Assembly: GCA_965649765.1 (NCBI GenBank)
Contig: OZ287748.1
Location: 107,198,001 to 107,262,000 of the forward strand
Origin: Bispira polyomma
Lineage: Eukaryota
Reading direction: 5' to 3'
Length of the DNA stretch: 64,000 nucleotides
Shown: one piece after another, positions 1,630-2,583 of the stretch
Layout: each line of letters begins with the position of its first letter
Numbering within the stretch: the first letter of the stretch is position 1
The notes under the pieces: generated by a model
Database searches by the model: none
What the model was told of the DNA's origin: nothing
What the model saw: only the letters and a program-made list of their open reading frames with translations
Translations under genes and position numbers: made by a program

Positions 1630-2583
1630 TGTGTTTCGGGCATTCAGCTTAGGTTGGACCTCTGACTTTGTACCTGTGTTTCAGGCTTTTATCATTGGTT
1701 GGACCTCTGACTTTGTACCTGTGTTTCAGGCATTCATCATTGGTTGTACCTCTCACTGTCTTACCTGTATTTCAGGCATTCATCATTGGTTGGACCTCTG
1801 ACTTTGTACCTGTTTCAGGCTTTTATCATTGGTTGGACCTCTCACTCTCTTACATGTATTTCAGGCATTCATCCTTGGTTGGACCTCTGACTTTGTACCT
1901 GTTTCAGGCATTTATCATTAGTTCGGCCCCTCACTGTCTTACCTGTGTTTCAGGCATTCACCATTGGTTGGACCTCTCACTGTCTTACTGTGTTTCAGGC
2001 ATTCATCATTGGTTGGACCTCTCACTGTCTTACCTGTGTTTCAGGCATTCATCATTGGTTGGACCTCTGACTTTGTACCTGTGTTTCAGGCATTTATCAT
2101 TAGTTCGACCTCTCACTGTCTTACCTGTGTTTCAGGCATTCATCATTAGTTGGACCCCTCACTGTCTTACCTGTGTTTCAGCATTCATCATTGGTTGGAC
2201 CTCTCACTGTCTTACCTGTGTTTCAGGCATTCCCCATTGGTTGGACCCCTCACTGTGTTACCTGTGTTTCAGGCATTCATCATTGGTTGGACCTCTGACT
2301 TTGTACCTGTGTTTCAGGCATTCATCATTAGTTGGACCCCTCACTGTCTTACCTGTGTTTCAGGCATTTATCATTAGTTGGACCTCTCACTGTCTTACCT
2401 GTGTTTCAGGCATTTATCATTAGTTGGACCTCTCACTGTCTTACCTGTGTTTCAGGCATTTATCATTGGTTGGACCCCTCACTGTCTTACCTGTGTTTTA
2501 GGCATTCATCATTGCTTGGACCTCTCACTGTCTTAACTGTGTTTCAGGCATTCATCATTGGTTGGACCTCTGACTTTGTACCT
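1630..2583 (+). repeat. 45/46-nt tandem array of splice acceptor plus exon start (~20 decoy copies)
   Basis: cctgtgtttcag|gcattcatcattggttggacctct repeated; the last copy is the real exon start at 2548. Confidence 0.97.

Follow-up and report, generated by a model that had tools for sequence, protein, structure and literature searches.

Twenty decoy splice acceptors in an anoctamin intron: a probable mirage minisatellite in a genome with arrays at about a tenth of the sampled exon edges

An anoctamin intron in which the acceptor is preceded by some twenty near copies of itself raises the questions of how such an array arose and how one acceptor is chosen within it. The array lies in the window, the whole 64,000-nt stretch analysed here (G000:C1:107,198,001-107,262,000), which belongs to a genome of 1.035 Gb in 75 contigs. 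We consider it, with a probability of about 0.8, to be a mirage minisatellite, that is, 20 copies of the anoctamin acceptor and the start of its exon, whose extra acceptors are likely neutral. The original description of mirages is said to be that of Canestro et al. in 2002. The single locus is ordinary for its genome and its kind has already been named in print; the part worth keeping is an excess of such arrays at exon edges.

The intron and its array

The closest protein matches of the host gene are annelid and mollusc anoctamins (75-82% identity), with Capitella and Ridgeia as the top named matches when summed over the whole anoctamin gene, and the host is probably a lophotrochozoan-like invertebrate, an annelid if judged by its best protein matches. 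The intron runs from the donor AAT/GTAAGT at 1527/1528 to the real acceptor TTTCAG/GCA at 2547/2548 and is 1,020 nt long (1528-2547); the segment encoded across the latter junction is presumably the ninth transmembrane helix. Before the array formed, the intron may have been about 112 nt long (1528..1629 plus copy 1). The features are collected in Table 1.

Table 1. Features of the anoctamin gene in the window (positions count from the first letter of the window)
Feature	Positions	Strand	Description
Upstream anoctamin exon	1322..1527	+	Ends at the donor; Pfam PF04547, E 2e-31; aligns with Anoctamin-1 residues 708-775, PDB 5nl2
Donor GTAAGT and unique 5' intron part	1528..1629	+	From the sequence
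Mirage minisatellite (probable)	1630..2583	+	Authentic junction preceded by 20 decoy units, each 43-46 nt long
Outermost copy	1631..1639	+	GG instead of AG; differs in 4 of 33 columns (mean 1.95)
Possible 46-aa insert	2410..2547	+	138 nt made up of three 46-nt units with no in-frame stop, if AG 2408-2409 were used
Authentic acceptor	2533..2547	+	Authentic by homologue spacing; 14 of its last 15 bases agree with the 2409 decoy, the mismatch giving a private TTAAC
Downstream exon, 170 nt	2548..2717	+	Donor GTGAGT at 2718
Second acceptor mirage, at the same gene's next acceptor	8781-9388	+	47 bp, 12.9 copies; 12/12 decoys keep AG, 0 open in frame; exon 9375-9480

The junction word occurs 21 times in the intron, as 20 decoys and the real site, and the array takes up 918 of the 1,020 nt (1630-2547, 90%), which agrees with an earlier note on this DNA that had spoken of about 20 decoys filling about 90% of the intron. 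TRF reports 1630-2575 with a period of 46, 20.8 copies, 87% matches and a score of 1395, far beyond chance. The last intron bases of copies 1-11 are 1639, 1684, 1729, 1775, 1818, 1864, 1907, 1953, 1998, 2044 and 2089, and those of copies 12-21 are 2135, 2181, 2226, 2272, 2317, 2363, 2409, 2455, 2501 and 2547, the last being the real site. The AG is kept in 19 of the 20 decoys, and copy 1 reads CGG; the note was thus right both about the lost AG of the outermost copy (1630) and about the 19 near-identical AGs upstream of the acceptor that gives the conserved protein. From the 2547/2548 junction each unit takes in at least 9 bases of intron and 24-36 of exon, and a branch-point-like CTGAC or CTCAC stands 18-21 nt before the AG in every one.

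The note had also described two interleaved units, of 45 and 46 nt, with different lengths of exon. The two types stand, while their lengths range over 43-46 nt and what separates them is a single 12/13-nt segment: six units carry the 12-nt segment of the exon (four of 45 nt and two of 43 nt) and 14 carry a 13-nt segment (12 of 46 nt and two of 45 nt). An ordered alternation of the types was rejected, the order being random with 9 switches against 8.4 expected. The two versions of the segment align at 9 of 13 positions (P about 0.006 against random 13-mers), and because they are alike beyond chance the types are better read as variant repeats; crossover at a short, imperfect homology would have yielded the two segments as separate products, or else one segment would have arisen from the other by mutation. 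Interspersed unit types are familiar in VNTRs as minisatellite variant repeats, which resemble the present array in having at least two unit types in apparently random order and variants common to non-adjacent copies, and differ from it in that the unit here holds a splice acceptor. Such variants are shared inside the array by 5-7 non-adjacent copies. Copy 7 has 6 differences, more than the 4 of the outermost copy; over 20 arrays, however, the outermost copies are the more diverged (2.45 against 1.45 differences).

Four of the six defining features of mirages are found at the array, namely the tandem repeat, the unit that spans the boundary, the partial retention of AG, and concerted evolution with the edge copies excluded, and none of the six is contradicted; the remaining two are undisturbed normal splicing and a copy number that varies between haplotypes or cells. 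The accessible text of two papers names mirage minisatellites in amphioxus Adh3 and in the globins BflGb6 and BflGb9 (PMC3087553), and in troponin C and PGBD5 (PMC3902484). As in those, the tandem unit here spans an intron-exon boundary, AG is present in many copies but not in all, and edge copies are more diverged; the acceptor type, consisting of the intron's 3' end plus the exon's 5' part, is that of BflGb6, and the unit length falls in the 10-72 bp of Adh3. The differences are that the host is a cephalochordate there and lophotrochozoan-like, probably an annelid, here, that BflGb6 has 3-6 copies instead of 20, and that the present array has two interspersed unit types and is known from genome sequence alone.

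Could the array be an artefact of assembly, or much shorter than assembled? Three public runs cover the introns evenly and were read as DNA, and none of their contigs spans the array, so that the number and order of its units are taken from the assembly. The contigs do, however, match both ends of the array and inner pieces of it with 0 differences, depth rises over the array, and the units carry distinct variants (87% matches), which makes an artefact very improbable; the contigs of the three runs come from one study, and their source may be the sample that was assembled.

The mirage minisatellite likely began as one short duplication across the junction that expanded by slippage or unequal exchange, and its copies would have been homogenised after the expansion. 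The seed duplication may have used short homology, as ACCTCT lies on both sides of the junction; the unique sequence on the 5' side of the array also contains ACCTCTCA at roughly the corresponding position, which would be a plausible seed homology. Copies that span the junction may have been tolerated because they leave one complete exon, acceptor included, unharmed at the 3' end, while damage to the whole exon would have been purged.

The choice of acceptor and the open decoy at 2409

The private TTAAC of the real site, at -12, is a weak lead as a distinguishing mark, and an RNA structure that hides the decoys was rejected, since 2364-2600 folds no better than shuffled sequences (z +1.07, 173 of 200 as good). 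Because local sequence cannot tell the decoys from the real acceptor and no structure hides them, position likely decides which site is used. If exon definition operates in the host animal, as we assume, the last copy would likely be picked by it, because that copy is the only one to precede a full exon and is the nearest to the 2718 donor. Reed and Maniatis reportedly found in 1986 that the outer duplicated site wins over sites with short exon stubs. Decoy 2 (1684) has an intact AG and CTGAC and would close an intron of 157 nt, and across-intron pairing would therefore favor it, which is the weak point of the exon-definition account. Early stops follow from 18 of the 19 AG-bearing decoys, 144-916 nt before the end of the exon and with two more exons downstream, and any leakage to these decoys would likely be cleared by nonsense-mediated decay. 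With 19 intact and near-identical acceptors over 860 nt, the locus is a clean natural experiment on how a 3' splice site is chosen, and gene predictors can pick a decoy acceptor in it.

A comparable choice is described in the accessible part of PMC1557585, where the pseudo-donors in the 37-bp VNTR of human F7 intron 7 are functional yet silent. Its first element likewise spans an exon-intron boundary, and we count as a further likeness that its identical pseudo-sites are normally silent while the exon-adjacent site is used. It differs in lying on the donor side instead of the acceptor side, and the scanning model proposed for it, tested in mammalian cells, concerns 5' sites.

Six decoys are in frame (1818, 1953, 1998, 2181, 2226 and 2409), and only the one at 2409 is stop-free. 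A frame check confirmed what the earlier note had said of it, that the acceptor at 2409/2410 lies 138 nt upstream of the real one, has no in-frame stop and would add 46 amino acids; the isoform that the note drew from this was not supported. The reading would be that 2409 is a regulated alternative acceptor that yields an anoctamin lengthened by 46 residues behind the transmembrane segment. Its last intron bases match those of the real site at 14 of 15, and open in-frame decoys are rare in other arrays, being found in 2 of 28 arrays and in 1 of the 19 with at least five decoys; most other array units carry several stop triplets, so that the capacity for read-through sets this array apart. The consensus of the 46-nt unit, however, has no stop triplet in any frame, and 46% of 20,000 shuffles of unit order yield at least one open in-frame decoy (P 0.46), so that an open frame is expected by chance. 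Moreover, the variants in the copied exon bases are without synonymous bias (3 synonymous and 11 nonsynonymous distinct variants against 17:55 possible), and no insertion comparable to 46 amino acids was found among 120 homologues, in 113 of which the flanking motifs stand exactly 24 residues apart. The other seven comprise one pattern mis-hit with normal spacing, five short records without the downstream motif, and one with 25 extra residues that look like intron read-through.

As to the protein itself, the insertion at a transmembrane segment that the note had foreseen would fall at the junction, but the segment would not be broken by it, since the decoy repeats the last residues of the segment and the hydrophobic window across the junction is thereby kept, with a peak of 1.86 in both forms. 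This speaks for the isoform, whereas the three cysteines and the second hydrophobic window (1.64) that the insert adds could disturb the topology. Taken with the evidence above, a regulated isoform seems quite improbable, and the sequence gives no evidence of a function for the open frame; the open decoy at 2409 would be a by-product of three 46-nt lengths and a stop-free unit.

Arrays at exon edges and the decay of decoy splice signals

The frequency of junction arrays was estimated from a sample of 156 exons in 679 kb, obtained by genome searches for anoctamin, myosin head and HSP70 and by a tblastn map of four anoctamin genes. It took 63 of 73 myosin matches, 31 of 50 HSP70 matches and 12 of 31 from the anoctamin family, to which 50 tblastn exons were added; it excluded matches without fetched flanks, genes that were near-identical duplicates, HSP70s with no or almost no introns, and matches that the tblastn map had superseded. 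Of the 312 edges, 238 were called with a rough splice matrix, from sequence alone. Intron-side copies of the junction numbered at least two at 25 of the 238 edges, at least five at 15 and at least ten at 12. By a stricter array-end rule, 23/238 edges were array ends, against 37/1,858 intron positions and 16/3,000 positions in arbitrarily placed stretches. The first control on arbitrary stretches gave 117/2,000 (an odds ratio of only 1.9, P 0.01) because its period was unlimited; holding the nearest copy to 300 nt, as in all junction arrays, gave the 16/3,000, a limit that was set after the first result. A further control with splice-like intron words had 21 array hits in 775.

The array ends are spread over families (myosins 13/102 edges, HSP70 1/39, anoctamins 9/97), and without the anoctamins 14/141 edges stand against 12/1,100 intron positions. 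A bootstrap over 36 gene blocks gave an edge fraction of 9.6% (5.8-13.6) and an edge-to-intron ratio of 4.7 (3.1-8.2). The anoctamin gene itself has arrays at 5 of 30 called edges. Since 23 of the 238 sampled edges carry such arrays, the present one is not special to the 2548 exon. When the test word was slid over the 238 edges, the counts rose from 0 (90 nt inside the exon) through 6 (40 nt) and 15 (20 nt) to 25 at the junction itself, and on the intron side to 42 (40 nt) and 44 (200 nt); arrays therefore begin at or just beside exon edges, and many take in the junction, with array cover reaching a plateau within 40 nt of it. Junction copies were found at 8/117 acceptors and 17/121 donors (P 0.09), which does not establish a preference. 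Units of unannotated arrays had no excess of acceptor motifs (18/121 against 22.6 in shuffled units) and an excess of donor motifs (39 against 21.8 +/- 4.1); 20 arbitrarily placed 10-kb stretches held only 8 arrays, too few to judge.

A purely neutral origin that is blind to position fails to explain the 4.7-fold edge excess of array starts. One possibility, which we put forward tentatively, is that exon edges seed minisatellites nonrandomly via splicing- or transcription-coupled duplication, about 10% of edges being array ends at 3-8 times the intron rate. If so, exon boundaries would leave a mutational footprint throughout the genome in the form of mirages, well outside amphioxus too, and these would be a permanent source of new splice sites and introns. 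How mirages arise is called unclear in the accessible text of PMC3087553, and the frequency measured here, roughly a tenth of exon edges and some five times that at intron positions, is relevant to that origin and to intron gain by tandem duplication. The literature searched, mostly outside subscription journals, held no genome-wide count of mirages and no mirage outside amphioxus under that name, the word occurring once each in a snail and a spider paper.

Whether the decoy splice signals are selected was judged from 28 arrays, 25 from the exon-edge sample and three from the neighboring gene, which comprise 320 decoys by a gap-free matching that catches 18 of the 20 decoys of the anoctamin array. 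The AG or GT is kept in 294 of the 320. Distinct variants per column number 13/56 for the splice dinucleotide, 50/168 for exon columns within 6 nt and 26/112 for intron columns within 6 nt, and the 13 compare with a permutation mean of 15.0 among columns within 6 nt (P 0.31 for as few, P 0.80 for as many). Against all 24 columns the dinucleotides seem slightly better kept than chance (P 0.034 and 0.044), a difference that vanishes within 6 nt. In the anoctamin array itself the AG differs in 1/40 cells, against 38/620 in the other shared columns. The decoy AGs thus decay like their neighbors, one of two outcomes that the note had named together as refuting it, and the splice dinucleotides of decoys are neither purged nor clearly retained; their decay is neutral-like. 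Selection against the outermost site was rejected as a rule, that site being intact in 26 of 28 arrays (8/9 acceptor and 18/19 donor arrays).

These results bear on a further reading, in which decoys are used at a real rate, part of the transcript goes to nonsense-mediated decay, and copy number sets the dose of the gene. The 19 decoys that keep both AG and a branch-point-like word, the early stops that follow from nearly all of them, and the short introns that the outer decoys would close are all consistent with it. Nevertheless, dinucleotides that are neither purged nor clearly kept argue against it, as does the spread of arrays over unrelated gene families, and the accessible text of the amphioxus papers (PMC3087553, PMC3902484) reports no aberrant mRNA from published mirages, the latter for Adh and troponin C. 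We regard a role in gene dose as unlikely, and retain the mirage with extra acceptors that are likely neutral.

Neighboring arrays and duplications

Other arrays lie close to the one described. The neighboring JmjC/cupin gene, on the minus strand, has three mirages at 20461-20829 (donor, 73 bp x 5), 23941-25883 (donor, 31 bp x 63) and 26645-27829 (acceptor, 67 bp x 18). The same anoctamin gene has, near 107,173,070 of G000:C1 (L040), an acceptor mirage of 53 bp with 18 decoys, 9 of which are without AG, mostly through one CAG-to-CAA variant that has spread. A 58-bp array at 353-752 begins 5 nt past the donor at 348 and gives an inverted match of 13/14 to the end of that exon, which is reached by 0.3% of shuffles in one test chosen by eye; two paralogues (L002, L004) have direct donor arrays at the same exon.

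Within the anoctamin gene, a direct duplication of 456 nt (3141-3596 and 8655-9110, 438/456 identical) flanks 3597-8654, a broken minus-strand non-LTR retrotransposon with RVT_1 and endonuclease at 5580-7391, zf-RVT at 3884-4267 and a poly-A-like tail near 3597. The duplication is possibly an unusually long target-site duplication, and through it 7 orphan acceptor copies of the next exon stand 5 kb upstream of the exon itself. At 9564-9609, about 85 nt into the next intron, the final ~46 bases of the 9375-9480 exon recur once, as a displaced copy that has no donor.

Two observations concern the genes searched elsewhere in the genome. The closest anoctamin paralogue (G000:C1:107.50 Mb, minus strand; L044-L045, L043) has the same protein parts matched repeatedly at two places, which suggests duplicated or alternative exons. 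Myosin matches at G000:C8:1,226,545, C11:4,180,277 and C13:27,302,335, on three contigs, have the same lengths and near-identical scores, and would represent a recent triplication or a duplicated segment.
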